NCBI GenBank assembly: GCA_029863065.1
Contig: JAOTWE010000001.1
Span: forward strand, 1 to 53,394
Source: Betaproteobacteria bacterium
GTDB lineage: Bacteria; Pseudomonadota; Gammaproteobacteria; Burkholderiales; SG8-39
Length of the DNA stretch: 53,394 bases
Direction: 5' to 3'
The position numbers were made by a program, and so were the translations under genes. Under the pieces are notes generated by a model. That model was not told the origin of the DNA. It saw nothing but the letters and a program-made list of their open reading frames with translations, and made no database searches. This document shows positions 4,286-48,276 of the stretch, one piece after another; within the stretch, counting starts at the first letter, position 1; every line of letters begins with the position of its first letter.

Positions 4286-4314
4286 TTGATCTCGTAGGCT
4301 CGCTGCGAGATCAA
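4286..4314. repeat. strong hairpin (inverted repeat) next to the IS91-like relic
   Basis: TTGATCTCG (4286-4294) pairs perfectly with CGAGATCAA (4306-4314). The stem extends through a T-G wobble and two more pairs to about 12 bp with loop GCTCG (4298-4302). Confidence 0.6.
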
Positions 4315-4337
4315 AAGTCGCCTAGCCGCGCGCCCGA

Positions 4338-4391
4338 CGGCCCGTCCGCTCGGGGCAAGGCCACGATCATGCCCTGCACCCTGCACCTGGC
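4338..4391 (-). repeat. relic copy B of the quinone-oxidoreductase gene 3' end
   Basis: Aligns to copy A (1924-1970) at 43/47 positions and carries a 7-nt internal duplication (ctgcacc ctgcacc). It shares the 20-nt block cggcccgtccgctcggggca with copy A. Confidence 0.65.
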
Positions 4392-4418
4392 TAGCCTGGG
4401 AGGCAAAGCAGGGTTCGG

Positions 4419-5477
4419 TTACCTCAGCTCCAGCTCTGCCGTAACGACCGGCCCACTGATCCAGTGGGCCTTTTCAATATTGCCCTGGTATTGATCTGCC
4501 ACGTCATAGAACCTCAGCGTGATGGCAGCCTTGCGCATCTTGCCCTCTATCTTGGCAGGCAAGGCGTAGCTCATGGCGCGGGCCTCGAGGCTTTTTAGTG
4601 TGGTGTCCTCTATAACCACGGCCGATGGCATGGAGCCCAGCATCTCGGGGTACAACTCAAATTTTCTGTAGAACGTATCCACGACCTTGTGGAGTTCCTT
4701 GCCCTGATCGTCAGTGACGGATATCTCGAGAACAAGCACCCGCGAAGGACCTCCACTCGGCATGCCGTGGCCCTTGATCCGGTTCTCGACGACCATGCTT
4801 ATGTTTGGAAACGTAAGGTTGATATCCCTTAGGACAAGATCGTCTTCGTATATCCCGGGGTTGTGCATGATGGAATCAAAGCCGTGGTAGGCGATTCCGT
4901 CGACGGGCGCCATGTGGCACCCCTGGCACGTCAATCCCTCTTCGGCCGCTTTGCTTTCTAGCCACTGGCTGTAGGGCGACATCAGCGGCGGGAACAGCTC
5001 GTGGCACTTGGCACAGAAATCCTTCTCCTTCATTGCACTCAGGTCGGGCCGGTACGTCGTTTCATGCAGCTGCGTTATGGATAGTCCCGGTGCCGCCGGG
5101 CCGTGGCATATCTCGCAGTTAATCCCCTCCGCGCCACCCTTGATCCCGTGACAGGCATAGCAGGACTCCTCTCCCATCATCATGCCGAGGAAAAGATTGC
5201 CCTCTACGTAGTCCCTCGTACGCAGGAAGCTCTCGTTCGTCGTCGCGACAGCATGACGCGAGTGGCCAAGCCATTCCTTGTAAATCTTGCTGTGGCAGGT
5301 TCCGCAAACGGCGGCCCCGCGATGCTCGCCGAGCTCATACTTTGGCGTTTTCGTAGACATCATGCCTATGTACATATCACTGTTGATAAAGACAACGGCG
5401 AGGACCAGAAGAACAGCGACAAAAGCAGCCGGGACCAACCACCACTTGGAAACCGCACCCTTTTCGCCAAACGCCAT
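4419..5477 (-). CDS. membrane-anchored pentahaem c-type cytochrome (352 aa)
   Basis: Five CXXCH motifs: CGTCH, CYACH, CEICH, CAKCH, CQGCH. One N-terminal TM helix (WWLVPAAFVAVLLVLAVVFI). The ATG at 5477 has GAGG upstream. A C-terminal domain of about 160 aa has no haem motif. Confidence 0.85.
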   Translation of the reverse strand: MAFGEKGAVSKWWLVPAAFVAVLLVLAVVFINSDMYIGMMSTKTPKYELGEHRGAAVCGTCHSKIYKEWLGHSRHAVATTNESFLRTRDYVEGNLFLGMMMGEESCYACHGIKGGAEGINCEICHGPAAPGLSITQLHETTYRPDLSAMKEKDFCAKCHELFPPLMSPYSQWLESKAAEEGLTCQGCHMAPVDGIAYHGFDSIMHNPGIYEDDLVLRDINLTFPNISMVVENRIKGHGMPSGGPSRVLVLEISVTDDQGKELHKVVDTFYRKFELYPEMLGSMPSAVVIEDTTLKSLEARAMSYALPAKIEGKMRKAAITLRFYDVADQYQGNIEKAHWISGPVVTAELELR

Positions 5478-5546
5478 GACGCTACCTCGTCTTACCCTTG
5501 TAGCGTGGTCTGTGCCCACCCATCCATGTGCCGGCGACGGGTAGTG

Positions 5547-5843
5547 CTACATGCGCAACTGGGCGCCGATCTTGCGTATGAAGCTGGCCATCATCAACAG
5601 CATGATGCCCAGGAGAACGGATGCCGCGGCCACCAGCCAGACGAGGATCCCCGGCTCGATGACGATCAACACGCCGAGGACAATCAATAAGATGCCTGGC
5701 AGCATCGTCAGGACGCTTGGAAACCGTTTTTGTGTCATGCCCGCGCACATCTTCGCCATCGGACACATGGCCATCGCGCCTTCGGGTCGCCGGGTCCCGG
5801 CGGCCATCGACTCTGCGCTCTGCCTTACGCTGTCTTGGGTCAT
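5547..5843 (-). CDS. small membrane protein with Cys/Met-rich N-terminus (98 aa)
   Basis: The ATG at 5843 is preceded by GGAGG (complement of 5850-5854). MAMCPMAKMCAGM is followed by two hydrophobic helices (LPGILLIVLGVLIVIEPGILVWLVAAASVLLGIMLLMMA). Confidence 0.65.
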   Translation of the reverse strand: MTQDSVRQSAESMAAGTRRPEGAMAMCPMAKMCAGMTQKRFPSVLTMLPGILLIVLGVLIVIEPGILVWLVAAASVLLGIMLLMMASFIRKIGAQLRM

Positions 5844-5893
5844 GGTTAACCTCCTGCTGGCATGAATCGAGAAGGTTGAGTATTCGGCGCTGC

Positions 5894-6118
5894 TCAGCCC
5901 GGGTTCATCTGCTGGATCACCTTTTCTATGGGGCAGAGGTCAGCAAGAGTGACATACGCTCCCATCAAGGGGAAAAATGCCGCAATCACGAAGACCCAGA
6001 TCGCCAATATCCGTCCGAACTTCTGTATCGACCCGTCGGTCTTCGTGGAGGAGAAGAGAATGAAGTAACCAAGCGTTACCCAGATCGTGGCAGGCAGAAG
6101 ACTGAAAAAGAAACACAT
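5894..6118 (-). CDS. small integral membrane protein (74 aa)
   Basis: The ATG at 6118 has GGAGG 7 nt upstream. It has 2-3 hydrophobic helices, a Cys at residue 2 and a C-terminal DLCPIEK. No family recognised. Confidence 0.6.
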   Translation of the reverse strand: MCFFFSLLPATIWVTLGYFILFSSTKTDGSIQKFGRILAIWVFVIAAFFPLMGAYVTLADLCPIEKVIQQMNPG

Positions 6119-6240
6119 GGCATCACCTCCGGCGTCGTTTGGGCCCTTCTGGTGACTTCCTCAAGCATTCGCGTTCGAGAACGGATACTGCTAGCACAAT
6201 TCAATTCCGCGCTTGTTGACGTGGGTCAGACGAAATGCGA

Positions 6241-7116
6241 TTAAGAAAGGGGAATTTGACAGCGCGCTGGCGGGCACAAGCTGCTATCCGGGGCGTCGGC
6301 AGCCTTCGTTGCGCGAATGAAGGCGCTCAAGAACTTGCCATCCACCTGCGGACCGATCACGGTCGCATCCATGCCATTGTCCGCAAGGAAAGCTCTTGCA
6401 TCTTCTGCCCGGTAAATGCGCGTGGGCTCGATTTCCACGTTCTGGAACCCGGCAGCGGCGAGCTTCGCACGGTATTGATTCTCTTCCAGCGCGCCCGCCA
6501 CGCACCCCACCCAGAGCAGGATGCTCTCGCGTATCTCGGGCGGAATGTCGCCCCGCGTGACCACGTCCGATACGGCGAATCGGCCGCCCGGTTTCAGAAC
6601 CCGGAACGCTTCGCGCAGTACGCGGTCCTTGTCCGCCGAGAGGTTGATCACGCAGTTGGAGATGATCACGTCTACCGAGTCATCCGGCAGCGGGATGTGT
6701 TCGATCTCGCCTTTCAGGAATTCCACGTTCTGCACGCCGGCCTTGCGCTTGTTCTGATTGGCGAGCGCCAGCATCTCGTCGGTCATGTCGAGCCCGTAAG
6801 CCTTTCCGGACGGTGCCACGCGCTTCGCAGAAAGGAGAACGTCTATGCCACCGCCCGATCCAAGATCGAGTACGACCTCCCCCGGCTTCAATTGCGCCAG
6901 TGCCGTAGGGTTCCCGCAGCCAAGCGAAGCCAGCACCGCGGTATCGGGTAACTGGTCCGTCTGCCTCGCCTCATACAGGTTGCTGGTAATCGGATCGCCG
7001 CGCTGACCATCGGCCGGCGCTCTGCTGCAGCAGGAGCCCTTGGCGCCGCTCGTAACGTTTAAGGCGGCGCGCGCATACCTTTCCTTGACGACGTTCTTGA
7101 TATCGGTCTTTTCCAT
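6241..7116 (-). CDS. arsM: arsenite S-adenosylmethionine methyltransferase
   Basis: SAM motif [11 protein letters not shown]. The conserved ArsM cysteine contexts are present: [36 protein letters not shown] is also present. AGGAG overlaps the arsR stop. Confidence 0.9.
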
Positions 7117-7124
7117 GGCATCTC

Positions 7125-7469
7125 CTAGGCGCCGGCGTTGACAATCTTCTTGGGGCTGATCGCCTTACTGCGCGTGCAGCACTCGGAATAAAGGAATGCG
7201 AGCAACTGCTGCAACGCATTGACGTTCGCTGTGTACCTGAGGTACGTGCCCTCCCGCTGGACTTGTACCAGGTCTTCGTTCTTCAACTTGTCCAGGTGGT
7301 GCGAAAGGTTCGATCCGGACACATCCAGTTCGGCCTGGATCTCGCCGACCACCATGCCCTCGGGATGGGCCGCGAGCAGCAGCTGCATGATCCGGAGCCG
7401 CGATTCGGCGCCGATGGCGGCAAACATATCCGCGTATTGAATGATCTGTTCCGGACTGGCTGCTTTCAA
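7125..7469 (-). CDS. arsR: ArsR/SmtB family metalloregulator
   Basis: Winged-helix core ESRLRIMQLLL...VGEIQAELDVSGSNLSHHLDKLKNEDLV. C-terminal vicinal cysteines (YSECC). I prefer the TTG start at 7469, 9 nt after AGGAGG (7479-7484). The track's TTG at 7526 coincides with the -35 hexamer. Confidence 0.85.
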   Translation of the reverse strand: MKAASPEQIIQYADMFAAIGAESRLRIMQLLLAAHPEGMVVGEIQAELDVSGSNLSHHLDKLKNEDLVQVQREGTYLRYTANVNALQQLLAFLYSECCTRSKAISPKKIVNAGA

Positions 7470-7498
7470 GGCCAGCAACCTCCTATTTCGAGAGTTCA

Positions 7499-7526
7499 AT
7501 GATAATGAAAATAGCGAAGTTGTCAA
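7499..7526 (-). promoter_or_regulatory. sigma70-type promoter of the arsR operon with overlapping imperfect palindrome (candidate ArsR operator)
   Basis: On the minus strand the sequence reads TTGACA (7526-7521), 16 nt, TATCAT (7504-7499). The imperfect palindrome TTCAATGATAATGAA (plus 7495-7509, 5 of 7 arm pairs) overlaps the -10. Confidence 0.5.
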
Positions 7527-7625
7527 GACCCGGCTGAGGTGCGACGTGTAGAGCGCCGTGGTCAGCGGCTTCAGCTTCCCGCCGCCGGATCGTCGTGAAG
7601 CCTTTTCGCCGATAGCAGCTCGCCC

Positions 7626-8816
7626 TCAATACGAGCGTGGCATGCCGAGAATGTGCTCGCCGATGTATCCGAGCACGAGGTTGGTCGAGATCGGGGCGAT
7701 CTGCATCAGGCGCGTCTCGCGCCACTTGCGCTCGACGTCGTACTCGCGCGCGTAGCCGAACCCGCCATGGGTCTGCATGCAGGCCTCGGCGGCATGCCAG
7801 GCGGCTTCGGACGCCAGCATCTTGCCCATGTTTGCGTCATCGCCGCAGGGCAGGCCTGCCTGGAACAGGGCGGCAGCCTTCCTCAGCAGGATGTCGGCCG
7901 CCTCGATCTCGGCATGGGCGTGCGCGATGGGAAACTGGATGCCCTGGTTCTGGCCGATGGGCCGGCCGAATACCACGCGGTCCTTGGCATACGCGACCGC
8001 GGTCCTGGTAAACCAGCGTCCGTCGCCGATGGCTTCGGCCGCCACCAGGATGCGTTCTGCGTTCATGCCATCAAGAATGTATTTGAAGCCTTTGCCTTCC
8101 TCGCCGATCAGGTTTTCGGCCGGCACCCGTGCGCCGTCGAAGAACACTTCGGTTGTATTGTGGTTGATCATGGCCTTGATCGGCTTGATCTCCAGGCCTT
8201 TGCCGAGGCAGGCGCGGATGTCGAGCAGGAACACCGACAGGCCTTCGGTCTTCTTCTTCACCTGCTCTGCAGGCGTGGTGCGCGCGAGCAGCAGCATCAG
8301 GTCCGAATGCAGCGCGCGCGATGTCCACACCTTCTGGCCATGAATCAGATAGTGATCCCCCTGGCGGACCGCACGCGTTTTCAGTTGCGTGGTGTCCGTG
8401 CCGGTGGTCGGCTCGGTCACGGCGAATGCCTGCAATCTCAGCGCCCCGCTGGCAATCTTCGGCAGATATTGCGCCTTCTGCTCGGGGCTGCCATGGCGTA
8501 ACACGGTGCCCATGATGTACATCTGCGCGTGGCAGGCGCCTGCATTGCAGCCGGCGGCGTGTATCTCTTCCAAAATGGCCGCCGCAGCGCGCAGTGGCAG
8601 CCCCGCCCCGCCGTACTCCTCCGGAATCAGCGCGGCCAGATACCCCGCCTCGGTAAGCGCTTTGACGAACTCGGTCGGATACGCCGAGCGCTCCTCGAGC
8701 TCGCGCCAATAGGCGCCGGGAAAGCTTGCGCAGATCCGGCGCACGCTGGCGCGGATCTCCGGGAAATCCTCGCCCAACGCTACGCCGATGTCCTCAATTC
8801 TTGTCGTGGCAGCCAT
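7626..8816 (-). CDS. acyl-CoA dehydrogenase
   Basis: 396 aa and full-length ACAD-like: GYLAALIPEEYGG, TEPTTGTDT, QIAPISTNLVLGYIGEHILGMPRSY. Confidence 0.9.
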   Translation of the reverse strand: MAATTRIEDIGVALGEDFPEIRASVRRICASFPGAYWRELEERSAYPTEFVKALTEAGYLAALIPEEYGGAGLPLRAAAAILEEIHAAGCNAGACHAQMYIMGTVLRHGSPEQKAQYLPKIASGALRLQAFAVTEPTTGTDTTQLKTRAVRQGDHYLIHGQKVWTSRALHSDLMLLLARTTPAEQVKKKTEGLSVFLLDIRACLGKGLEIKPIKAMINHNTTEVFFDGARVPAENLIGEEGKGFKYILDGMNAERILVAAEAIGDGRWFTRTAVAYAKDRVVFGRPIGQNQGIQFPIAHAHAEIEAADILLRKAAALFQAGLPCGDDANMGKMLASEAAWHAAEACMQTHGGFGYAREYDVERKWRETRLMQIAPISTNLVLGYIGEHILGMPRSY

Positions 8817-28502: not shown

Positions 28503-28676
28503 GGGCATACCTGAGAAGCCGGCTTCCGGCCGCAAGCGGACTTTCAATCGACCGCCCTATGAGGCGGCTGATCGGATCGCTGTGCGCGTGGCGCCAACTT
28601 GACCCTTATCAATTCGACTGACAATGCGCGGAAGATACTCGTCGGCGATGTGCCCACTCTATCAAAGACAAATACC

Positions 28677-29309
28677 ATGACAACCTTTTCGGAGGACATC
28701 TACAGCGAGCCTTCGAACATCGACGTCGATACGCTGAGGAATCTTGGACCGCTGAGCGGCTTGGCGGGAATCTGGAAGGGAACACGCGGCCTGGATGTGA
28801 AGCCCAAGGCCGAGGGTCCAAAAAAGCAGGCGTATGTGGAGCGATTCGAGCTTCAGCCGATCGACCCGCAAACCAACGGCCCGCAACTATTCTATGGACT
28901 GCGCTATCACCAGCACGTGGTGAAGCCGGACCAGGTCAAGACTTATCACGATCAGGTCGGGTATTGGCTATGGGAGCCCGGCACAGGCACCGTCATCCAG
29001 ACGCTTACGATTCCGCGCGCCCAGGTTGCTATGGCCGTTGGCAAGGCTACGCCCGATGCAAAGTCATTTGAGCTCGTCGCGAGCCGCGGTCCGGAGACCT
29101 ACGGGATCTGCTCGACCCCATTTCTGGAATACGCATTCAAGACGGTGGAATACCGCATCAAGGTAAGCATCAACGCCGACGGCACTTGGTCCTACGACGA
29201 GGACACCGTTCTCATGATCAGGGGCAAGAGCGACCCCTTCCACCATACGGATCGCAATGTGTTGACCAAGATCGGTGAGCCTACGCCGAACCCCTTGGCG
29301 CGAAAATAG
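28677..29309 (+). CDS. haem-binding beta-barrel (nitrobindin/THAP4-like, DUF1794-type) protein
   Basis: The ATG at 28677 starts the ORF. LGPLSGLAGIWKGTRG ... YHDQVGYWLWEP fits the lipocalin-like nitrobindin pattern as I remember it. The gene appears to have lower GC than its neighbours (by eye, not counted). Confidence 0.6.
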   Translation: MTTFSEDIYSEPSNIDVDTLRNLGPLSGLAGIWKGTRGLDVKPKAEGPKKQAYVERFELQPIDPQTNGPQLFYGLRYHQHVVKPDQVKTYHDQVGYWLWEPGTGTVIQTLTIPRAQVAMAVGKATPDAKSFELVASRGPETYGICSTPFLEYAFKTVEYRIKVSINADGTWSYDEDTVLMIRGKSDPFHHTDRNVLTKIGEPTPNPLARK

Positions 29310-29342
29310 CGTCGACAGGGTTTCCTTGAGTGCCCGCCGCGA

Positions 29343-29360
29343 GCGACCGCCCAGGGTCGC
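29343..29360. terminator. possible bidirectional hairpin between convergent genes
   Basis: GCGACC (29343-29348) pairs with GGTCGC (29355-29360), leaving a 6-nt loop. There is no clear U-tract, so the call is weak. Confidence 0.25.
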
Positions 29361-29421
29361 AAACGGCCATTCGCCCGCATCGGCTTCCGGCCAGAAGCGG
29401 ACACTCGGCGTACGCCGCAGG

Positions 29422-30471
29422 CTAGTGGGTTGCCACAAACATGCAGTTCTGCGGTCGCGGCGTGTCCAGAACGCTGACATTTCCAAAACCCGCTTCGCCA
29501 AGCATTCGCCGTGCGGTTTGTTCGCCCCAGACCGTGCCGAGGCCTTGACCGCCCACCGCAAGGGACACCGGCATGCAATGCATCAGGCTGATGCCGTAGT
29601 ACATCGGCGCAAAGGGGTTGGCGACGTTCTCTTCTATGCGGCTGCTGAATTTGAACTCGATCATCAGGAAGGTGCCGCCGGGGGCCAACGCCCGCTGCGC
29701 GCTCCGCAATACGGAGTCGGGCGCCTTCTGATCGTGAATGGCGTCAAATGCAGTGATGAGTTGGAATGTCGGATCGCCCGGCAGATCTGTCACGTCGACC
29801 ACCTCGAACGTGGCGTTCGTGAGCCCCATCTCCTTCGCTTCGGCGCGCGCCCGGGCGATCGCGTCCTCGGCAATGTCGTAGCCAAGAAAGGTCGATTTCG
29901 GGTATTCGCGAGCAAGAACATTCATCGCATGCCCCGTGCCGCAGCCGATATCCAGGACGCGGATTCCCTGGCGCAACCGGTCGGTGAGCCCGTCGACGAC
30001 GCCGATGAAGCCGGAAACGAGCAGCTGGTCGAAAATCCGGCGCCACATATCGTCCATGCACTGCGTGAAAACCGGCCGATATGCCGAATAGGGAATTCCG
30101 CCACCTTGACGAAAGCACGCCGTCAACTTCGGCAGGTGGGTGCCGAAATGATTGATCATGCGGCTCATCGGCGAGAGGTTCTGCGCTGAATTGCCCGTGA
30201 GTAGCGCCGCATGCTCCTGCGGCAAGCTGTAGCGCTTTGACGCAGGGTCATACGAATAGATCCCGCTGGTCGCCATCGCGCCGAGCCACTCGCGGACGTA
30301 TCGCTCCTTCAATCCCAGGCGATCCGCCAGCTCGTCGGTCGTGGCCGGCCCTGCCCTTGAACCTTCGAAGAGCCCTACCTGAAAGCCGATCTCGATCAGC
30401 TTTGTCAGTACGGCCCCAGTGTAGATATTGAGGAGTTTCCCGCCGAACTGCTTTACCACGTCAGGATTCAT
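29422..30471 (-). CDS. class I SAM-dependent methyltransferase with N-terminal winged-helix domain
   Basis: The ATG at 30471 starts the ORF. SAM motif VLDIGCGTGHAM. The N-terminal ELADRLGLKERYVREWLGAMATSG resembles the Rv2258c-type wHTH. Confidence 0.85.
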   Translation of the reverse strand: MNPDVVKQFGGKLLNIYTGAVLTKLIEIGFQVGLFEGSRAGPATTDELADRLGLKERYVREWLGAMATSGIYSYDPASKRYSLPQEHAALLTGNSAQNLSPMSRMINHFGTHLPKLTACFRQGGGIPYSAYRPVFTQCMDDMWRRIFDQLLVSGFIGVVDGLTDRLRQGIRVLDIGCGTGHAMNVLAREYPKSTFLGYDIAEDAIARARAEAKEMGLTNATFEVVDVTDLPGDPTFQLITAFDAIHDQKAPDSVLRSAQRALAPGGTFLMIEFKFSSRIEENVANPFAPMYYGISLMHCMPVSLAVGGQGLGTVWGEQTARRMLGEAGFGNVSVLDTPRPQNCMFVATH

Positions 30472-30623
30472 GGTCCCCCCATTGTCGCCAGGAAACAGTA
30501 CCACCCACCATGCGCACCTGCTTAAGGTACGCACTCATGATCAACACCATGGCAATTCTAGTAGGACGTGCTTACCCCATGCGAATGTCCGCTTCGGGAC
30601 GAAAGCAGTGGTACGCCGGCAGT

Positions 30624-31799
30624 TCAGCGACGTGGGGCCGCCGCCGATTTCTGCAACCATCGCGCAATTGCAAACGCGCCCGCAGCGGCCGCAAGGCACG
30701 CGGCGGCCATCCAAATGGGCGCTGCGCTCGACGCAGTACGCAGTGCAATCACCCCCGCGATGGCCGGGGCCATCGCCATGCCGACGTAATTTACGGTGAA
30801 GAAGATGCCCATCCCGGCCGACCGCGACTCGGCATGCAGGACCTCGCCGGGCAGGGAAACGAGCACGCCGGCTGGCAGACCGCCTAACAGCCCTGCTGCA
30901 ATGAGCCATGGCAGCGGCGCAGTGGAGGTGACGAGTCCAATCGTCGCCAGCGCCCATCCGGCGAGGCCGGCATGGACAAGCAGATTGGCGCGCCCGTATC
31001 GTTGCACGAGAAGACCCCCGGCCTGGACCGACGCAATGGTCAGGATCGTATTGATCGCGGTGAAGCCGCCCGCCGCGACGAGCGACAGGCCGGAGTGCAC
31101 GAAGTAAATCGGCAGGAACGCCACGATTAGCACGTAGCCGGCGTTGTAGAGCATCCAGGGCATTGCAGTGGCGCCGATCAGAATCCATTCCTGCCTTGCA
31201 AATCTGCGCAGATCGACCTTTTGCGCAATCGGCGCGCCCGGCGAAGGCGTGTAGCCAAAAAACACACTGACCATGCCCAGCGCCGCCATTGCCGCGGTGG
31301 CGACAAAAGCCGCTTGCCAGGAAACGCTCTGCGCCAGCGCCCCCTGGGTCAATAGCGCGATACCGATGCCGATCGGCCAAGTGTTCACCAGGATCGACAT
31401 CGCCAGAACCAGTTCCTTGCCTGCGAACCAGTCGGTCACCATCTTGGTGAGCAGAACGCTCAGCACTGCCCCGCCCACGCCCATGACGGCGCGCGCGACA
31501 GAAGCCTGGACGATGTCGCTCGCAAACGCGAAACCGAGACCCCCGGCGATCATCAGGGTCAAGCCGGAGAGCACCATGCGTTTGTCGCCGAAACGCGCGC
31601 CCAGCATTCCTCCCGGCAGAGCGAACGCAATGCCGGGCAGCAGGTACAGGCCTACCAGCCAACCAATCTGCGCCTGATCGAATCCCAGGCTGTCGGATAG
31701 CAGCGGCGCGGTGGCGGCCACCGACTGGAACTGGAATCCCATGCCGACGCGCGCCAGCGAGAGCGCCGCCAGGACCCGCCAGCGCCGCTCAATGTTCAT
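30624..31799 (-). CDS. MFS transporter
   Basis: 391 aa and 12 TM helices. The start ATG directly abuts the upstream TAA (31800-31802). Confidence 0.85.
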   Translation of the reverse strand: MNIERRWRVLAALSLARVGMGFQFQSVAATAPLLSDSLGFDQAQIGWLVGLYLLPGIAFALPGGMLGARFGDKRMVLSGLTLMIAGGLGFAFASDIVQASVARAVMGVGGAVLSVLLTKMVTDWFAGKELVLAMSILVNTWPIGIGIALLTQGALAQSVSWQAAFVATAAMAALGMVSVFFGYTPSPGAPIAQKVDLRRFARQEWILIGATAMPWMLYNAGYVLIVAFLPIYFVHSGLSLVAAGGFTAINTILTIASVQAGGLLVQRYGRANLLVHAGLAGWALATIGLVTSTAPLPWLIAAGLLGGLPAGVLVSLPGEVLHAESRSAGMGIFFTVNYVGMAMAPAIAGVIALRTASSAAPIWMAAACLAAAAGAFAIARWLQKSAAAPRR

Positions 31800-32528
31800 T
31801 TACTTGAGCGTGGCCGCGATGCTCCGGATCTCCGCCGGCGTGTGCTCGCCCGCGAGCGGCGTTCCCGGCACCAGGTGCCGGCCCATGGTGAGCGGCCCGA
31901 TCAGCACCGGCTCGAAATTGATCTCGCGCATCAGGCTCGAGGCCACGGCGATGGCGTGGACGTCGTCGCCCGCCATCGGCATGCCGGTGCGCACGCCCCT
32001 GCGGCTCGCGATTTCCGGCAGCCGCGCGGCGCCGATGGCGTTGAAGGCGCGCACCAGTCGCGCTCCCGGCAGCAGCTCCGCCGTGGCGCGGCCGGCGCCC
32101 CGTTCCCGCGCCCAGACCGCGATCTCGCCGTCGCGCGACGGGAACGGATTGCACGCGTCGAGCACCAGCACCTTGGCGGCGAGCGCCGGTGCGTGGTCCT
32201 TGCCGATCTGCGGCAGCGCGCGATAGGGAACGGCGAGCAGCACCGCGTCGGCAAAGGCGATCGCCTCCGCCACCGAGCCGGCCTGCGCCAGCGGGCCGAG
32301 ATTCAGGACCAGGTCCTTGAGTTCCTCCGGATGGCGCGAGGAGAACATCACCGGGTGGCCCGCCTTCACCCACAGGCCGCCGAGGGCGCTGCCGATGCGC
32401 CCGGCGCCGACGGTGGCGATCTTCAGCGGCGCGTCGGCGGCGCGGGCGGCCAGCGGCGACATCGCGAGCAGCGCGGCGCCGAGAAGAAAATCGCGGCGCG
32501 AGCCGTTGATCACAGCGTGCGTTGCCAT
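31800..32528 (-). CDS. Tat-signal-bearing NAD(P)-binding Rossmann protein (NADPH-dependent F420 reductase / P5C-reductase-like family)
   Basis: Twin-arginine motif SRRDFLLGA, then a hydrophobic stretch and ARAADA. Rossmann motif KIATVGAGRIGSALG. Confidence 0.8.
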   Translation of the reverse strand: MATHAVINGSRRDFLLGAALLAMSPLAARAADAPLKIATVGAGRIGSALGGLWVKAGHPVMFSSRHPEELKDLVLNLGPLAQAGSVAEAIAFADAVLLAVPYRALPQIGKDHAPALAAKVLVLDACNPFPSRDGEIAVWARERGAGRATAELLPGARLVRAFNAIGAARLPEIASRRGVRTGMPMAGDDVHAIAVASSLMREINFEPVLIGPLTMGRHLVPGTPLAGEHTPAEIRSIAATLK

Positions 32529-32538
32529 GTCCGTCGCC

Positions 32539-33447
32539 TCAAAGGGTCTGCAGGAACTCGATCATCCGCCTGCGTTGCGCCGCATCGGGCAGGCGGCCGC
32601 GCATAGCGCCGATATTGTCGGCCATGTGCGCCGGGTCCGAGGTGCCGGGAATCGCCGCGGTCACCGCCGCATGGCCGAGGACGAACTTGAGGAAAAACTG
32701 CGCCCAGCTCGCGGCGTCGAACTCCTTCGCCCAGTCCGGCAGGGTCTTGCCGCGCACCGCGCGGAACAGCCGCGCGCGGCCGAAGGGCAGCGCGATCAGG
32801 ACCGCCGCCTTCATCTCCGCGGCGAGCGGCAGCAGGCGCGCTTCCACCTCGCGGTTGTCGAGCGAGTAGTCGATCTCGATGAAATCGCACTTTTCGCGCC
32901 TGAGCACCGCCTCGACCGCGGGGTAGTCGGGCTCGTAGGTCGAGGTGACGCCGAAGTAGCGGCACACGCCCGCGGCTTTCCAGGCGCGGAACTGTCCCAG
33001 GTCCTGGTTCGGGTCGCGCACGTTGTGCAGAAACAGCAGGTCGACCTGGTCGCTGTGCAGCCGCGCGAGCGAACCGCGCAGCTCCGCGGCGTCGGGAGAG
33101 CGCAGCTTGGTGGCGATGAACACCTGCTTTCTCAACCCGGCCTGCGCCACCAGGTCGCCCACGACCCCTTCCGACGAGCCGTAGGACGTGGCGGTGTCGA
33201 TGATCGTGCCGCCGCCGGCGAGCAGGTTGCGCAGCACCTCGGCGAGCCCGGCGCGCCTGGCCGCGTCGTCGCCGACGTTGAAGACGCGCGAGGTGCCCAG
33301 GCCGATCGCCGGCAGGCGCTCGCCGCTCGACGGAATCGACCGGGTGATGACGTCCGCCGCGGCGCCCTGCGCGAGCGACGGCAGCAAGCCGGTTGCGCCG
33401 AGCGCGGCGAGGCGCGCGGCAAATTCACGCCGGGATACGTTTTTCAT
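32539..33447 (-). CDS. Tat-signal-bearing aldo/keto reductase
   Basis: Twin-arginine motif SRREFAARLAALGATGLL...AQGAAAD. The AKR catalytic residues are in the expected contexts (IIDTATSYG, IATKL, FLHNV). Confidence 0.85.
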   Translation of the reverse strand: MKNVSRREFAARLAALGATGLLPSLAQGAAADVITRSIPSSGERLPAIGLGTSRVFNVGDDAARRAGLAEVLRNLLAGGGTIIDTATSYGSSEGVVGDLVAQAGLRKQVFIATKLRSPDAAELRGSLARLHSDQVDLLFLHNVRDPNQDLGQFRAWKAAGVCRYFGVTSTYEPDYPAVEAVLRREKCDFIEIDYSLDNREVEARLLPLAAEMKAAVLIALPFGRARLFRAVRGKTLPDWAKEFDAASWAQFFLKFVLGHAAVTAAIPGTSDPAHMADNIGAMRGRLPDAAQRRRMIEFLQTL

Positions 33448-34749
33448 TCAGCCTCCTTGTGCGGCGCGGCGCTCCTGCGCGCGCCCGAGCGCCATGGACA
33501 GCAGCAGCCAGCCGAAGGCCGCCGGAATCGCGCAGGCGGCGATCGCCGCGAGCTTCAGGCCGAGCCCCTGCAGGCTGTCGAACACCCAGCCGTAGAGCGC
33601 ATCCGATCCCCGGAAGACGACGACGTCGACCAGGTTCTTCGCCTTGTACTTTTCCTCGCGCGACACCACGGTATAGAACACCTGCCGCGCCGGGTTGGCA
33701 ATGGCGAAGTTCATGGTGCGCTGGATCGCCTGGAAGAAAATCACCGCGGCGAGGCCGGGCGCGAGCGCCAGCACGGCGAAGGCGACGACGTAGACCGCGG
33801 GCAGCGCGGCCGCCGCCGGCGCCGTGCCGAAGCGCTTGAGGAAGCGCGCGGTGATGAAGGCCTGCGTCGTCAGCGTCAGCAGGCCGACCGCGAGGTCGAT
33901 GCCGGCGAACAGGCGCGTCTGCTGCGCCGGGTCGTGCAGCGTCGTCGAGACGATGTGCGCCTGCTGGAAATAAAGGAACGTGCCGCCGAAAGACAGCAGG
34001 CTCACCCAGGCGGCGATGCCGAGGAGGTAGGGCGAGCGCGCGACCTCGGCGAGGCCGGCGAAGGCGCTGCCGCCGATGCGGTCGGTTTGTGCCGCGGGCG
34101 GGGCCTGGCTGGGCGCGCCGTGCGCCGCCCGCTCCAGCCGGTACGCGCACAGCACGGCGAATTCGAGGAACAGGGCGGCGACGAGCAGCAGGTTGACCGG
34201 GCCGAGCGGCACCGAGAGCCCGATCGTGACGGTGGGGCCGAGCAGCGCGCCGGCGGTGCCGCCGGCGCCGATGAAGCCGAACAGGCGCTTGCCCTGCTCG
34301 CTCGAAAACAGGTCGGCCATGAACGACCAGAAGACGACCACCGCGAACAGGTTGAAGACGCTCACCCAGACGAAGAACACGCGCGCCACCTGCGCTTCGG
34401 CGACGCGCAGCGTCAGCAGCAGCCAGAAGATCGCGAGGTTGGCGACGAAGAAGTGATAGACGATGGGAATGAAGCGCGCGCGCGGCAGGCGCGCGACCAG
34501 CGCGCCGTAGAGCGGCTGGGCGAGGAGCAGCACGACGAAGGTCGCCGTGAACAGCCACGGCAGGTTGCGCACGCCGCCGGCGATGCCCATCTGGTCGCGA
34601 AGCGGCCGCAGCACGTAGTAGCCGGCCAGCAGCGAAAAGAAATACGCGAACGACCAGAGCAGCGCGGCACGTTCCGCCGGCGCGACCGGCACCGCGCGCG
34701 CCACCCAGCGGTGCAGGGCCGGCGCCGGCGTGCTGCCGCTCGGGGTCAT
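33448..34749 (-). CDS. AAA-family (TLC / ATP:ADP-antiporter-like) transporter homologue, often annotated as MFS
   Basis: 433 aa, polytopic. FAYFFSLLAGYYVLRPLRDQMG and VFWSFMADLFSSEQGKRLFGFIGAGGTAG parallel the Rickettsia/Chlamydia Tlc blocks ([39 protein letters not shown]), recalled from memory. Confidence 0.7.
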   Translation of the reverse strand: MTPSGSTPAPALHRWVARAVPVAPAERAALLWSFAYFFSLLAGYYVLRPLRDQMGIAGGVRNLPWLFTATFVVLLLAQPLYGALVARLPRARFIPIVYHFFVANLAIFWLLLTLRVAEAQVARVFFVWVSVFNLFAVVVFWSFMADLFSSEQGKRLFGFIGAGGTAGALLGPTVTIGLSVPLGPVNLLLVAALFLEFAVLCAYRLERAAHGAPSQAPPAAQTDRIGGSAFAGLAEVARSPYLLGIAAWVSLLSFGGTFLYFQQAHIVSTTLHDPAQQTRLFAGIDLAVGLLTLTTQAFITARFLKRFGTAPAAAALPAVYVVAFAVLALAPGLAAVIFFQAIQRTMNFAIANPARQVFYTVVSREEKYKAKNLVDVVVFRGSDALYGWVFDSLQGLGLKLAAIAACAIPAAFGWLLLSMALGRAQERRAAQGG

Positions 34750-34784
34750 GCCGGTAGAATATACAGGTGCCCGGAGGTGGACCC

Positions 34785-35297
34785 ATGAAGACTTTCGCTC
34801 CTGCCTTGGTGGCTATCGTTCTGGCGGCGTGCGCCGCGACCGAGCCATCCCGCGACCCGGCCGACAAGGCGGCGCAGGCCGCCACGGCGCCGCTCAGCGA
34901 CCTGAACCTGGTGCGAGCCAATATCCCGCCGCCGCTGGTGGCTGCGCTGAAAGCGCCTTATGCGCGGCCGGCCGACGGGGCCTGCGCCGGCCTGACGGCG
35001 GAGGTCGAGGCGCTCGACGTCGTTCTCGGCACCGACCTCGACGCCGCGGACTCGGCGTCGAATCCAAGCGTGATCGAGCGCGGCGTGACCGCCGTCGGCG
35101 ACGCCGCGATCGGCGTGGTGCGCGGCGCCGCCGAAGGCGTGGTGCCCATGAGAAGCTGGGTACGAAAGCTGAGCGGCGCGGAGCGCCATTCGAAGGAAGT
35201 CGCCGCGGCGGTGGCCGCGGGCGTCGTGCGCCGCTCGTTCCTCAAGGGACTCGGCGACGCCGGCGGCTGCGAGGCGCCCGCCGCGCCGCGACGCTAG
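34785..35297 (+). CDS. hypothetical lipoprotein
   Basis: The ATG at 34785 follows GGAGGTGG. The lipobox is LAAC within MKTFAPALVAIVLAACA. No family recognised. Confidence 0.6.
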   Translation: MKTFAPALVAIVLAACAATEPSRDPADKAAQAATAPLSDLNLVRANIPPPLVAALKAPYARPADGACAGLTAEVEALDVVLGTDLDAADSASNPSVIERGVTAVGDAAIGVVRGAAEGVVPMRSWVRKLSGAERHSKEVAAAVAAGVVRRSFLKGLGDAGGCEAPAAPRR

Positions 35298-36166
35298 AAG
35301 CGCGGCCGGAAGGCGCCGCCGCGGCCCTCGATGCGGCAGGCGAAGGGCGCGCCGAAATGCGCCGGCATCAGGAGCGCGCCGCCGGCGCAGTGCTCGAGCG
35401 CCTTGCGCCGGCTGGCGCGGGCGTTGACGGTATCGGCGCAGGCGGCGCTGTTCCACTCCGGGTGGTAGACCTGCAGCGCGTGGTGCAGGATGTCGCCGCA
35501 AAAGAGCGCCCGCTGGCCGCGCGACTCCAGGTGGATGGCGATTGTGCCCGGCGTGTGGCCCGGCGCCGGCTCGACCGAAAGGCTTTCATCCAGCGCCGTG
35601 GCGCCCGAAACCATCTGCGCGAGGCCGGCTTCGACCACCGGCAGGATCGAGTCGCGGAACGCGCCCAGGGTGGCGGGCCCCTTCTGCGGATCGCGGTCGA
35701 TGGCGAGGTAGTGCTCGTAGTCCTCTTTGCTGAAGACGTAGCGCGCGTTGGGGAAGGTCGGCACCCAGCGGCCGTTCTCCAGGCGCGTGTTCCAGCCGAT
35801 GTGATCGACGTGCAGGTGCGTGCACATCACCATGTCGATCTGCTCCGGGCGCGCGCCGGCCGCCTCGAGGCGCTCGAGATAGGGCGTGTCCATCATGTTC
35901 CACATCGGCCGCATCGCGCGCGGCTTGTGGTTGCCGACGCAAGCGTCGATCAGGATGCGCTTGCCGCCGACGGTGAGCAGCCAGCTGTGGATGCTCAGCT
36001 TGAGCATCCCTGACGCGGGGTCGTAGTGATCGGGCGCGAGCCACTCGCGGTGCTCTTCGGCCACCGCTTCATCCCAGTCGGGAAAGAACTTGGCGGCCTT
36101 GAAATTCGGCTCGTAGGTTTCCTCGATCCGCGCCGCGACGGCGGCGCCGATGCGCAGCTCGGTCAT
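35294..36166 (-). CDS. MBL-fold metallo-hydrolase (lactonase-like)
   Basis: 290 aa. The metal motif is THLHVDHIGWN, and later His/Asp ligands are present. Confidence 0.85.
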   Translation of the reverse strand: MTELRIGAAVAARIEETYEPNFKAAKFFPDWDEAVAEEHREWLAPDHYDPASGMLKLSIHSWLLTVGGKRILIDACVGNHKPRAMRPMWNMMDTPYLERLEAAGARPEQIDMVMCTHLHVDHIGWNTRLENGRWVPTFPNARYVFSKEDYEHYLAIDRDPQKGPATLGAFRDSILPVVEAGLAQMVSGATALDESLSVEPAPGHTPGTIAIHLESRGQRALFCGDILHHALQVYHPEWNSAACADTVNARASRRKALEHCAGGALLMPAHFGAPFACRIEGRGGAFRPRF

Positions 36167-36573
36167 GGCCGGGCCGGCTTTTCGGCGAGGATCTTCCTGG
36201 CGATGCGAAAGCTGTCCAGCGCCGCCGGCGCGCCGCAGTAGGTGGCGACGTGGATGAAGATTTCCTTGATCTCGCGCTTGGTGATGCCGTTCCGGAGCGC
36301 GGCGCGCAGGTGGATCTCCAGCTCGTGCGGGCGGTTCAACGCCGAGATCATGGCGAGGTTCATGATCGAGCGGGTCTTCAGCGGCAGCACGCCGCGCGCC
36401 CAGCTCGCGCCCCAGCCGTGCTCGGTGACGTAGTGCTGCAGGTCGATCGTGAAGTCGTCGGCCTCGCGGAACGCCTTGTCGACGTAGGCCTTGCCGAGCC
36501 AGCGGCGCCGGATCTTGAGCCCCTCCGCGTAGGCCTTGCTGCGCTTGAACGTCCTGCTGGTTGATTTCGCCAT
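36163..36573 (-). CDS. carboxymuconolactone decarboxylase (CMD/AhpD-like) family protein
   Basis: The ATG at 36573 starts the ORF, and an ATGA overlap links it to the MBL gene. CMD pattern: LKTRSIMNLAMISALNRPHELEIHLRAALRNGITKREIKEIFIHVATYCGAPAA. Confidence 0.85.
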   Translation of the reverse strand: MAKSTSRTFKRSKAYAEGLKIRRRWLGKAYVDKAFREADDFTIDLQHYVTEHGWGASWARGVLPLKTRSIMNLAMISALNRPHELEIHLRAALRNGITKREIKEIFIHVATYCGAPAALDSFRIARKILAEKPARP

Positions 36574-45908: not shown

Positions 45909-46547
45909 TCACTCCGGAAACAGCACGTCGAAGAGCACCTTGGTCTTGGGTGTCAGATATTCGGGCTTCGGGCGAAGGAGCTCGGCCTCGGGGACCAGCA
46001 CCTTGATATACACCGCTTCGTATACGCGTTTCACGACCCCCGGGGCGACCATCGCCCGATCGGACCCGGGGAGAATCCCGACGAGCCGAAAGCCGGCGGT
46101 TTCCGCGACCGCCTGCATGTGCGGGCTGCGCAAGGTTGTGATGTAGTAAATCACTTCCATTCCCAGCGCTCGGCCCATTGTTTCCAAGGCCAGGGGAGCG
46201 AGGTTCGCCAGCTTTGCGCCGCGATGCTTCGGGGCCAGCACACCCAACCCGCAGTACAGCGTGAGATTGTGCTGGTCACGTTCGAGAGAAAGCATGCCGG
46301 CCAGCTCCGGATCTTTCCTGAGCAGGATCACCATCACTTCCTTCTCGGACTCCCCCTCGAGAAACACCTGGCGGAGGTAGAAATCCTCCTGCAAATAACA
46401 GCCCACGGCACCCACGATGATGTCCGGGTACCATTCTTTGACGCAGCCGATGAGCTCAGGAACGTCCGCGCGCCGCAGCTGTTCCAGCCGATAGCCTTGC
46501 GGAAGCGGCCAGTTCGCCAACAGGCCTTTAACTCCGGTCCAATTCAT
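45909..46547 (-). CDS. GNAT-like acetyltransferase (tentative)
   Basis: The ATG at 46547 starts the ORF. GVLAPKHRGAKLA fits the acyl-CoA-binding R/QxxGxA motif. Otherwise it is divergent. Confidence 0.5.
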   Translation of the reverse strand: MNWTGVKGLLANWPLPQGYRLEQLRRADVPELIGCVKEWYPDIIVGAVGCYLQEDFYLRQVFLEGESEKEVMVILLRKDPELAGMLSLERDQHNLTLYCGLGVLAPKHRGAKLANLAPLALETMGRALGMEVIYYITTLRSPHMQAVAETAGFRLVGILPGSDRAMVAPGVVKRVYEAVYIKVLVPEAELLRPKPEYLTPKTKVLFDVLFPE

Positions 46548-46599
46548 TCGAGCACCCTGACGTCGCTCTTCAGCCGGGACGGCATGCGAGATTTCTGAC

Positions 46600-47247
46600 C
46601 TACCGAAGCGAGGCCTCGGTTTTGACAACGCTGGGTCTCACGCCGACCGCCCTCCACCAGTTTGCAAGACGCGGGAGGGTTGGTGCCACCGCCTCACCCT
46701 CCGGGGTCTGGAGAAAGTACGCCCACATCGGCGCGAGGTACAGATCCGCCAACGTCACGGCCCCACCGATCAGGAACGGAGATCCTTCGACGAGCTGCTC
46801 GAGCACCCCTAATCCCTTGCGCAGGCGGCGCATGCCGATGTCGACGGCGCTCTGGTCCGCGGGTTGCCCAAGCACGGGCTTGATCAGCCTTTCGAAGAGA
46901 ATCTGACCGACCATCGGCGCGTAGATGTACGAAACCACGACCCCGATGACCTGGAGCATTCGGGCGCGTGCGGAAGCGTCCTTGGGCTGGAGTGGCGCAC
47001 CGGGGAACGCGCGATCGATGTAGTCGGTAATCGCACCGGTCTCGTAGAGCCTCAAGTCCCCGTGCTCGAGAACGGGAACTTTGCCGAACGGGTGACGGGA
47101 AAGGTGCTCGGGGGTCCTGTTTGCGCCTCGCAGGAAATCGACTTCGACGAGCCTGTAGGCGACGCCCTTCTCTTCCAACGTAAGCCGCGCTGTCCGGGTG
47201 TAGGTGCTGTACGCCGGACCGTACAGGATCAGGTCGCTTCCTGTCAC
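46600..47247 (-). CDS. glutathione S-transferase
   Basis: GTG start. Thioredoxin-like N-domain: LILYGPAYSTYTRTARLTLEEKGVAYRLVEVD...FGKVPVLEHGDLRLYETGAI. Confidence 0.85.
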   Translation of the reverse strand: MTGSDLILYGPAYSTYTRTARLTLEEKGVAYRLVEVDFLRGANRTPEHLSRHPFGKVPVLEHGDLRLYETGAITDYIDRAFPGAPLQPKDASARARMLQVIGVVVSYIYAPMVGQILFERLIKPVLGQPADQSAVDIGMRRLRKGLGVLEQLVEGSPFLIGGAVTLADLYLAPMWAYFLQTPEGEAVAPTLPRLANWWRAVGVRPSVVKTEASLR

Positions 47248-47440
47248 GGCTGATCCCAGGGCAGCTGTGTCCGAGCGGTACGACGCTTGAAATGAGCGGC
47301 CGACGCCGGCTGGCGACGCGAGCCGGGGCCGACCTCGCGGAAGAACGGGCCAAGCGGCTGCACTCGGGGTCCTCCGGTTATCGCGATGGGGTTAACGTCG
47401 CCGTTCACCCGGCCGAGGCACTGGCCAGGAGCGTCGCGCC

Positions 47441-47749
47441 TTACGCCAACGCTTTCACCAAGCCCTCGCTCATCGCCATGGACTCTTGGATCGAAATTAT
47501 CGGAGCGGTCTTGGTGGATTTGAAGAACCCGCCTTCGGCCATACGCCACATATCAAGCGACTTGACTACGTCGGTCGCACTCTGCTGCTCGCAGATGACA
47601 ATGCCCCAACCGTCCGGAGTGATATCCCAACGTATGACTTCGACACCCTTGGGAGGAAACAATCCTGAAGACATTATCTTCTGAACGAATTTATGGCGAT
47701 CCCCCTCGGGCATATTCTCATTGAGCTCCCAATACGTCAGAAAAAGCAT
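47441..47749 (-). CDS. DUF3303-type small protein
   Basis: AGGAGG lies 5 nt upstream of the ATG at 47749. MLFLTYWELNENM...VIRWDITPDGWGIVI matches my memory of DUF3303. Confidence 0.65.
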   Translation of the reverse strand: MLFLTYWELNENMPEGDRHKFVQKIMSSGLFPPKGVEVIRWDITPDGWGIVICEQQSATDVVKSLDMWRMAEGGFFKSTKTAPIISIQESMAMSEGLVKALA

Positions 47750-47868
47750 TTTGGCCTCCTTTCATTGAGCGACTGGACCGGCTTTGGCAAACCGGCGCAT
47801 TTGCGGCATTTGCGCTCGCTACTCGAAGCGGATCACGAGCTGCCTGGAACCGGCATCGATGTGGCCGC

Positions 47869-48276
47869 CTAGAACTTCGGAACGCCTTCTTCCACAGTAA
47901 ATTGACGAGACACGCCGTTCTCAACGCCAGTGAGCAAGATCTCGTTTCGGTTCTTGCTATGGCGCTTAAACCGATAACTATCGGGGGCGCCAACTTCGGT
48001 CGTAACGCAGATCTGATCGTTGCCCTTCACTTGCCATGTACGTGGAAACCGCCCGCCCGCATCGGTAATAACTATCCCCCTTCCGTCAGGACGATAGTGC
48101 CCAACCCACCCGTGGCCTCTGAATGTCTTGTTGGAATAAAGAGCTCGCAGCTCCTCGGGGTCCTTGATGTCGACCCAGTCGCCCGAGCTCTGCGCCACGG
48201 CAGGTGTAGACAGTGCGCAGATCAATACGCCGGTCACAAACGCGAATTGCCGTTGCAGGCTGCTTTCGGTAGTCAT
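47869..48276 (-). CDS. exported hypothetical protein
   Basis: The ATG at 48276 has GGAGG 5 nt upstream. Signal peptide: FAFVTGVLICALSTPAVAQS. Confidence 0.6.
   Translation of the reverse strand: MTTESSLQRQFAFVTGVLICALSTPAVAQSSGDWVDIKDPEELRALYSNKTFRGHGWVGHYRPDGRGIVITDAGGRFPRTWQVKGNDQICVTTEVGAPDSYRFKRHSKNRNEILLTGVENGVSRQFTVEEGVPKF

Follow-up and report, generated by a model that had tools for sequence, protein, structure and literature searches.

The stretch of DNA analysed here, hereafter the window, comprises 53,394 nucleotides (nt) of contig JAOTWE010000001.1 from a Betaproteobacteria bacterium (assembly GCA_029863065.1). It contains a minus-strand gene cluster in which a membrane carrier related to the NTT/TLC nucleotide transporters is followed by two oxidoreductases bearing predicted twin-arginine translocation (Tat) signals and by an ordinary transporter of the major facilitator superfamily (MFS). 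The first three of these genes form a conserved module, and it is with this module that the present work is concerned. The features of the locus are as follows.

33448-34749, minus strand: carrier of the NTT/TLC superfamily with an MFS fold, 433 aa, 12 transmembrane (TM) helices; the constant core of the module
33452-33458, minus strand: AAGGAGG, Shine-Dalgarno sequence (ribosome-binding site) of the aldo-keto reductase gene, located within the carrier gene at its 3' end
32539-33447, minus strand: aldo-keto reductase (AKR) with a predicted Tat signal, 302 aa, PF00248
31800-32528, minus strand: NADP-type Rossmann oxidoreductase with a predicted Tat signal, resembling FNO and the N-terminal domain of STEAP, 242 aa, PF03807
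30624-31799, minus strand: ordinary MFS_1 transporter, 391 aa, MFS_1 E = 1e-40; not a conserved member of the module
34750-34784: 35 bp separating the start codon of the carrier gene from a divergent lipoprotein-like open reading frame

The first-pass annotation of this DNA had described four tightly packed minus-strand reading frames, and their coordinates and junctions were found to be as claimed when the sequence was read directly. The TGA of the carrier gene (33450-33448) abuts the ATG of the AKR gene (33447), a gap of 10 nt (ggcgacggac) separates the AKR stop codon from the Rossmann ATG at 32528, and the Rossmann TAA (31802-31800) abuts the ATG of the MFS gene (31799). The position of the AAGGAGG ribosome-binding site within the 3' end of the carrier gene indicates translational coupling between the carrier and the AKR. 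No promoter consensus was found in the 34750-34784 spacer, so that the promoter of the operon must overlap the neighbouring gene; the scan for promoters and terminators was uninformative.

Absence of a conserved linkage had been named beforehand as an outcome that could refute the proposal of a common system, and the linkage held far better than had been foreseen. At least 572 species encode a relative of the carrier according to a scan of species-representative genomes, from which the best 80 loci were retrieved and 79 were tallied; a metagenome scan with divergent family members gave another 80 loci, 58 of them informative for the tally. With a partner gene defined as one no more than 2.5 kb away from the carrier gene, one or more of three enzyme types, AKR, FNO-like or extended short-chain dehydrogenase/reductase (SDR), stand beside the carrier in 75 of the 79 genome loci and in 56 of the 58 informative metagenome loci. 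The linked carriers span 40-100% identity to that of the window and several phyla; those from metagenomes are 40-61% identical to it, on contigs with a G+C content of 0.43-0.71. The partner combinations were distributed as follows.

AKR and FNO-like: 52/79 genome loci, 9/58 metagenome loci
FNO-like only: 12/79 genome loci, 3/58 metagenome loci
AKR only: 7/79 genome loci, 29/58 metagenome loci
FNO-like and SDR: 3/79 genome loci, 0/58 metagenome loci
SDR only: 1/79 genome loci, 10/58 metagenome loci
AKR and SDR: 0/79 genome loci, 5/58 metagenome loci
No partner: 4/79 genome loci, 2/58 metagenome loci

The genome loci come from Alpha- and Betaproteobacteria and one Gammaproteobacterium (a metagenome-assembled genome of the Steroidobacteraceae), and their cultured hosts include Variovorax robiniae, V. 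ureilyticus and Xenophilus. By tblastn, the AKR gene lies directly downstream of the carrier gene in about 60 of them, and the FNO-like gene is adjacent in about 67-68, mostly directly upstream and with a 4-bp overlap in several loci; among the metagenome loci the AKR gene adjoins the carrier gene in 42-43 and the FNO-like gene in 12. Gene order is permuted, with Rossmann-carrier-AKR, carrier-AKR-Rossmann, AKR-Rossmann-carrier and carrier-Rossmann all represented. Look-ups in the reverse direction began with an AKR homologue and with a pair of Rossmann homologues, and all three found the carrier next door. The third partner, recovered by clustering the neighbouring genes, is an extended SDR of about 380 residues with a Tat signal (Pfam Epimerase, PF01370; motif GGTGFxGP...FNRGK), and a twin-arginine (RR) motif is present in all nine SDR sequences extracted. 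Apart from antisense artefacts, the clustering otherwise brought out only a TctC/Bug-like binding protein in 13 loci, and none of the remaining neighbours is conserved.

The folds of the partner enzymes, a TIM barrel, an FNO-type Rossmann fold and an extended SDR, are unrelated to one another. What the partner families have in common is an NADP-type dinucleotide site and, in nearly all cases, a twin-arginine signal, and carriers that fall into one clade at above 55% identity have partners of mixed type. The carrier, the AKR and the FNO-like gene of the window (31800-34749) are thus a conserved three-gene module, one version of an association that involves three unrelated enzyme families.

The fourth gene does not belong to it. 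No homologue of the MFS transporter was found beside the module in 82 other loci (L002-L083), and the 80 metagenome loci held a single weak match (27%) on the opposite strand, some 750 bp from the carrier gene. The gene is also missing from the nearest relative of the window (locus L169), whose proteins are 86-88% identical to those of the window; there, DctP and BLUF genes come after the module, ahead of the TspO and CBS genes that the window also has. Because it is absent both from the other loci and from this close relative, the MFS gene is a local, lineage-specific passenger. The original picture of a four-gene operon acting as one system therefore survives for its first three genes, which are conserved together, but not for the fourth; the role assigned to the latter, that of moving the substrate or product of the system, was ruled out, the gene not being conserved.

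Taken alone, the window carrier is matched in Pfam by MFS_1 only (33.9 bits), without a match to TLC (PF03219) even at E <= 10, and a sequence search of the PDB with the single protein or with a shallow profile found nothing. The family at large is more telling. Pfam TLC is matched by 9 of 24 close and 24 of 40 diverse members (best E = 2.9e-15), and a profile of the 40 diverse members, the only one to reach NTT1, matches the solved NTT1 chains over their full length (9j3n, E = 5.7e-22; 9j3j, E = 3.6e-17). An AlphaFold2 model made with the diverse alignment has 12 long helices and scores well (pLDDT 93.1, pTM 0.91); it was used in place of a model from close homologues only, which was discarded (pLDDT 54.8). 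The three best Foldseek matches of the model are the AtNTT1 and CpNTT1 structures 9j3m, 9j3n and 9j3l (E about 5e-10, TM score 0.76), with the next MFS proteins about three orders of magnitude behind (E about 4e-7). On the strength of the TLC matches among its relatives, the profile match to NTT1 and the Foldseek ranking, we consider the assignment of the predicted carrier to the NTT/TLC superfamily to be solid. The proposal that the first gene encodes a TLC/NTT relative is thereby borne out, and the TLC-type sequence blocks on which it was based are real at the level of the family, although not sufficient for the window protein to match TLC by itself.

The carrier shares with the NTT/TLC proteins (TC 2.A.12) the 12-TM MFS fold and the blocks YxxLRxxRD (TM1), FWxF...KRxF, SPY and KxKxxxD (TM10-11). 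Its R48, in YYVLRPLRD, aligns with the arginine of NYTILRDTKD and is Arg in 33 and Lys in 4 of the 40 diverse members; we take this TM1 arginine to correspond to R46 of Rickettsia Tlc1, retained in the carrier. Unlike the known NTT/TLC proteins, which have about 500 residues, the carrier has about 430, fails the Pfam TLC model by itself, and belongs to a family found in free-living soil and water bacteria beside oxidoreductases predicted to be exported. That family comprises 11,379 clusters (50% identity) at E <= 1e-3, with members in Gammaproteobacteria and Flavobacteriaceae as well; its top 150 representatives are all single-domain proteins, the full-length ones of about 410-500 residues. 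Automatic annotation has named the close homologues 'AAA family ATP:ADP antiporter' (IMG) and 'NTP/NDP exchange transporter' or 'MFS transporter' (PGAP).

These names can be checked against the residues involved. Mutagenesis of AtNTT1 has shown that the binding or exchange of ATP/ADP depends on K155, E245, E385 and K527 (PMC3306366, PMC4776705). According to the HMMER alignment to the PDB chains, they correspond to F67, S130, Y260 and D383 of the carrier; across the 40 diverse members the first position is occupied by F, Y, L, W or M and the second by S, G, A or N, while Y260 and D383 are each present in 40/40. A second mapping used an AtNTT1 sequence in which the K, E, E and K residues stand at 156, 246, 386 and 528, uniformly one residue off the published numbering, and whose relevant segments also appear in the profile-versus-PDB alignment output. 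With all four charged residues replaced and only the TM1 arginine retained, the carrier is not a canonical ATP:ADP antiporter, and canonical ATP/ADP exchange was ruled out on this test. The broader notion of such an antiporter supplying or taking up ATP, with neighbouring enzymes unrelated to it in function, can appeal to the automatic names of the close homologues. It strikes us as extremely unlikely: besides the loss of K155, E245, E385 and K527, the hosts are free-living soil bacteria, and the extremely consistent linkage to exported oxidoreductases would be left unexplained. The names 'ATP:ADP antiporter' and 'NTP/NDP exchange transporter' are very probably wrong for thousands of proteins.

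Six residues of the TM helices, R51, W141, Y260, Y368, R380 and D383, are invariant in the 40 diverse carriers. Within the NTT family, PamNTT4 of Protochlamydia is an NAD+/ADP exchanger and Npt1 also carries NAD, whereas the members from free-living bacteria are uncharacterised (PMC5381601). With PamNTT4, NTT is the one transporter family in which a bacterial carrier of NAD+ has been demonstrated. That the carrier described here transports a nucleotide or dinucleotide, we only infer.

Tat-type signals had been predicted for both enzymes of the window, and comparison with other species upholds the prediction. The predicted signal peptide of the AKR covers residues 1-31 (nt 33355-33447), with the motif SRREFAA... 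and the sequence SRREFAARLAALGATGLLPSLAQGAAA preceding D at a proposed AAA/D cleavage site; that of the Rossmann protein covers residues 1-30 (nt 32439-32528), with SRRDFLL... and SRRDFLLGAALLAMSPLAARA preceding A. Both N-termini combine an S-R-R-x-F motif with a hydrophobic stretch and an Ala-rich cleavage region. The RR motif is present in orthologues from other species at a frequency far above chance: 59/61 for the AKR and 69/71 for the Rossmann protein in the genome set, and 35/41 and 11/12, respectively, in the much more divergent metagenome set, where most of the exceptions are sequences cut short by a contig edge or variants with R-K. Against the Pfam TAT_signal model, the Rossmann N-terminus scores below threshold (E = 0.01) and the AKR gives no match. 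Export of both proteins by the Tat pathway is strongly predicted.

The AKR matches PF00248 with E = 6.2e-23. Its Asp/Tyr/Lys/His contexts had been reported as kept, and indeed the tetrad D84/Y89/K114/H141, which aligns with D43, Y48, K77 and H110 of AKR1B1, is present in all 105 members of the AKR family examined, in which the stretches corresponding to the cofactor-binding segments of other AKRs are the best conserved. Another AKR subfamily, DkgA-like and 28-31% identical to the AKR of the window, also occurs downstream of the carrier (L033 7474-8355 and L038 7295-8026), and these AKRs likewise have a Tat-like N-terminus.

The PDB relatives of the AKR include the Kv-beta subunits, which raises the possibility that the enzymes are accessory subunits. 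In such an arrangement the exported AKR, FNO-like protein or SDR would dock on the periplasmic face of the carrier to sense redox state or deliver substrate, much as Kv-beta AKRs associate with Kv channels or binding proteins with TRAP/TTT carriers; STEAP, in which an FNO-like domain is attached to a membrane domain, and the tight translational coupling of the genes would be in keeping with it. We regard it as very unlikely, given that the strictness of the tetrad in 105/105 AKRs argues for catalysis, that three different folds would have to dock on one carrier, and that no fusion proteins were found among the top 150 representatives of the carrier family.

The Rossmann protein matches PF03807 (F420_oxidored, E = 1.1e-14). 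The GxGxxG motif noticed earlier (VGAGRIGSALG) is confirmed and is followed by an NADP-type Ser-Arg motif (VGAGRIGSALG...FSSRHPE), with SSR or ASR present in 61 of the 68 homologues whose motif region was captured. The best PDB matches are 4huj (uncharacterised), FNO (1jax) and the N-terminal domains of STEAP3/4 (2vns, 2yjz). The protein thus resembles STEAP and archaeal FNO in its FNO/STEAP N-terminal fold and NADP motif and, unlike STEAP, it stands alone, is predicted to be exported and has no haem-containing membrane domain. It scores 35.6 bits against the NpdG equivalog TIGR01915, far below the cut-off of 149.8, and F420 is not expected in most hosts of the module; the PGAP name 'NADPH-dependent F420 reductase' carried by its homologues is a generic one.

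A constant carrier is thus combined with variable enzymes that share only an NADP-type site and a Tat signal, so that the carrier would most economically handle what these enzymes have in common, a pyridine dinucleotide or its reducing power. Our preferred reading, which we advance tentatively and hold to be possible rather than probable, is that this is a widespread system in which a divergent NTT carrier moves NADPH/NADP+, or other pyridine-nucleotide reducing power, to fuel variable Tat-exported NADP reductases. Its central step, a link through the carrier between the cytoplasmic NADP(H) pool and the exported reductases, is to our mind equally tentative. In this scheme the carrier, common to all versions of the module, would connect the exported enzymes with the cytoplasmic pyridine-nucleotide pool by exporting NADPH and retrieving NADP+ in exchange, the mode of transport typical of the NTT family; as NADPH bears the more negative charge, its outward movement would be aided by the membrane potential. 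This could allow repeated turnover of the exported reductases on carbonyls, quinones or similar substrates in the periplasm. The enzymes (AKR, the second AKR subfamily, FNO-like protein and extended SDR) would vary by lineage because the periplasmic substrates differ, and the carrier would stay constant because the cofactor is the same for all of them. We place NADPH/NADP+ exchange first because NAD is within the repertoire of the NTT family and because the fuelling of NAD(P)H-type enzymes in the periplasm is an acknowledged problem.

Several observations weigh against this reading. All four charged residues required for ATP/ADP in AtNTT1 are replaced in the carrier, the F67 and S130 positions never being charged, and its predicted binding site is different from the canonical nucleotide site. 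At about 745 Da, a free dinucleotide could escape through porins, or nucleotidases in the periplasm could hydrolyse it. Exclusive use of the Tat pathway, and not of Sec, would be expected if the cofactor had to be loaded in the cytoplasm for want of any outside, as in the paradigm of glucose-fructose oxidoreductase (GFOR; PMC4628093). The cofactor pocket of the AKR, too, departs from the classical one. The reference contacts were S159, N160, Y209, P211, K262, S263, R268, E271 and N272 of AKR1B1; since hmmalign covered only the N-terminal half of AKR1B1, the C-terminal contacts were placed with a MAFFT add-alignment at about 20% identity and their positions are approximate. On this alignment N160 is replaced by S, T or H, Y209 by A or N, K262 by G or A, and R268 by H or Y, while T168, P221, T269, D277 and N278 represent contacts that are kept or conservatively changed. 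A GRxR loop (R224, R226) is invariant in the AKR family and might replace the contacts to the 2'-phosphate. The check for a degenerate pocket thus gave a divided answer, the tetrad being invariant and several classical contacts substituted, and we would call the pocket modified but, as far as the alignment allows, not obviously degenerate.

The last of these observations comes from plasmid pPAT9B03 of Pantoea sp. At-9b (L173, NC_014840.1 200698-205406), which encodes a membrane-bound PQQ dehydrogenase, the carrier and a DkgA-like AKR. This AKR lacks a signal and is predicted to be cytoplasmic, and its gene overlaps that of the carrier by 20 nt. Among loci with a resolved AKR N-terminus, which leaves L134 aside, it is the clearest case found of a presumably cytoplasmic partner enzyme, and the arrangement would suit the import of an oxidised sugar or acid for reduction in the cytoplasm.

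Such a layout, which looks like periplasmic oxidation followed by import and cytoplasmic reduction, leads to the main rival explanation, namely that the enzymes are nicotinoproteins exported with permanently bound NADP(H), as are GFOR of Zymomonas and the aldose-aldose oxidoreductase (AAOR) of Caulobacter, and that the carrier moves an organic substrate or product. The enzymes would then catalyse redox-neutral or dismutation reactions on a periplasmic carbonyl or alcohol, and the cargo would probably be an anion recognised by R51 and R380, with D383 as the proton-coupling site. A precedent exists: GFOR and AAOR are Tat-exported periplasmic enzymes with bound NADP (PMC4628093). They resemble the module enzymes as soluble NADP-type oxidoreductases with twin-arginine signals, and they show that export of a holo-protein is possible; the use of Tat by the partner enzymes and the absence of the canonical NTT nucleotide-binding residues from the carrier would fit as well. 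Furthermore, AKRs and SDRs, as generic carbonyl reductases, could have the same function, and the carrier profile bears a weak resemblance to an oxalate:formate antiporter. On the other hand, GFOR and AAOR have the Gfo/Idh/MocA fold, in contrast to the AKR, FNO-like and extended SDR enzymes of the module, and neither the AKR nor the FNO-like protein gave Gfo/Idh/MocA matches; their cofactor is recycled by a ping-pong between two sugars, and we know of no dedicated carrier gene associated with them. For this explanation to hold, three or four unrelated enzyme families would have to share one transported compound, with the TM-helix residues of the carrier invariant across phyla. Moreover, it leaves unexplained the turnover of a lone exported reductase in loci with one enzyme, and the nearest relatives of the carrier in sequence and structure are nucleotide carriers, three orders of magnitude ahead of other MFS proteins in E-value. 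We take it seriously as an alternative, while judging it rather unlikely.

An exchange of metabolites would reconcile the export of holo-enzymes by Tat with continuous turnover. Here the carrier would exchange the reduced and oxidised forms of a metabolite, after the manner of the mitochondrial malate or glycerol-phosphate shuttles, and the exported enzymes would reload their bound NADP+ by oxidising the exported form and then reduce periplasmic targets in a ping-pong reaction. NTT carriers are typically obligate exchangers (PMC3306366), ping-pong chemistry with a bound cofactor is known from GFOR and AAOR, and the missing nucleotide-binding residues would be accounted for. Yet every partner family would have to accept one shuttle metabolite in addition to its own substrate, the neighbourhood has no conserved gene for a cytoplasmic partner enzyme, and the proposal is entirely inferential, which together make it improbable in our view.

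The exchange of NADPH for NADP+ that we favour would bear on a recognised gap. The periplasm is stated to hold no free NAD(P)H, yet a growing number of NAD(P)H-type enzymes is being discovered there, and the source of electrons for periplasmic NAD(P)H-type enzymes is an acknowledged problem; CerR, an NDUFA9-like (SDR) ceramide reductase in the periplasm of Caulobacter, has a conserved NAD(P)H site and its source of reducing equivalents is unexplained (10.1101/2023.11.08.566215). The third partner of the module is, like CerR, a predicted exported extended SDR (a likeness of class), but CerR is not known to be linked to a carrier. An established route by which reducing power derived from cytoplasmic NADPH reaches the periplasm is the DsbD/CcdA thiol-disulfide relay, which, unlike the module, passes electrons through cysteine pairs of membrane proteins and involves neither a pyridine nucleotide nor an NAD(P)-dependent periplasmic enzyme. 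The first-pass annotation was aware of no system of the kind proposed here, and we likewise found no description of a module of carrier and exported NADP enzymes in the literature on periplasmic or Tat-exported AKRs, periplasmic NAD(P)H and NTT antiporters. Each of the proteins comes from a known superfamily, and partial paradigms exist in the NTT dinucleotide carriers and the Tat-exported NADP enzymes; what appears to be new is the combination.

NTT is the one family known for NAD transport across bacterial membranes, and a carrier belonging to it is here genetically locked to NADP-type enzymes of three folds that are predicted to be exported. If this carrier does move NADP(H), it would represent the first dedicated route supplying a cofactor to the periplasm, which would thereby become a compartment with its own supplied redox cofactor; the free-living NTT homologues, puzzling in 2017, would gain a function, and a tool for periplasmic biocatalysis would be at hand. 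If it moves an organic solute instead, the module would point to a new and widespread periplasmic reductive or oxidative pathway and to a new class of substrates for the NTT superfamily. Cupriavidus, Azotobacter, Variovorax and Pantoea, which can be cultivated and are amenable to genetics, have the module, and this makes the question of a periplasmic cofactor directly testable.

Among these, Cupriavidus metallidurans CH34 has the Tat-AKR and the carrier on its chromid (L171, NC_007974.2, locus 2252-7349; carrier at about 1,426,863-1,428,224 of the chromid). They are followed on the same strand by reading frames that resemble, by the appearance of their sequences, a class III alcohol dehydrogenase (FrmA/AdhC-like) and an S-formylglutathione hydrolase, neighbours that hint at a possible role in aldehyde detoxification or may be a coincidence. 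Azotobacter chroococcum combines the carrier (Achr_RS23180) with a Tat-FNO-like gene; a Pantoea carrier bears the locus tag PAT9B_RS27860. A second plasmid of Pantoea sp. At-9b, pPAT9B04, carries the carrier and an FNO-like gene (L174 4712-5452, WP_223300542.1) whose annotated start removes the Tat signal; the frame is open for 60 nt further upstream, encoding LMSLSRRQLIKLAAITGAMSMS, and the gene probably begins 57 nt ahead of its annotated start. In databases, other wrong starts of this sort may conceal Tat signals of the FNO-like family.

As for the surroundings of the module in the window, a lipoprotein-like reading frame of 170 aa (34785-35297, plus strand; MKTFAPALVAIVLAAC...), for which no Pfam family was found, diverges from the carrier gene at a distance of 35 bp from its start codon. 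Just upstream of the module, on the minus strand, 35294-36573 holds MBL-fold hydrolase and CMD-family genes that overlap by 4 bp. The segment between the Rossmann gene and the TspO and CBS genes shared with the nearest relative differs between the two (window 28599-31799, L169 3242-5534). In the window it contains the MFS gene (30624-31799), a methyltransferase gene with a WHD_Rv2258c domain (29422-30534) and a THAP4/nitrobindin-like gene (28599-29309), and in L169 the DctP and BLUF genes occupy the matching place. Homologues of the window MBL, CMD, lipoprotein and methyltransferase genes were not found beside the carrier by tblastn in the other loci analysed, except for one CMD-family match (L140), and with no recurrence beside the carrier these genes were ruled out as members of the module. 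MBL and CMD genes do adjoin the carrier in A. chroococcum and Pantoea. Finally, the G+C content is 0.59-0.61 at window positions 4001-8000 and 46001-48000, as against 0.67-0.72 over most of the contig, and these two stretches may be acquired islands.

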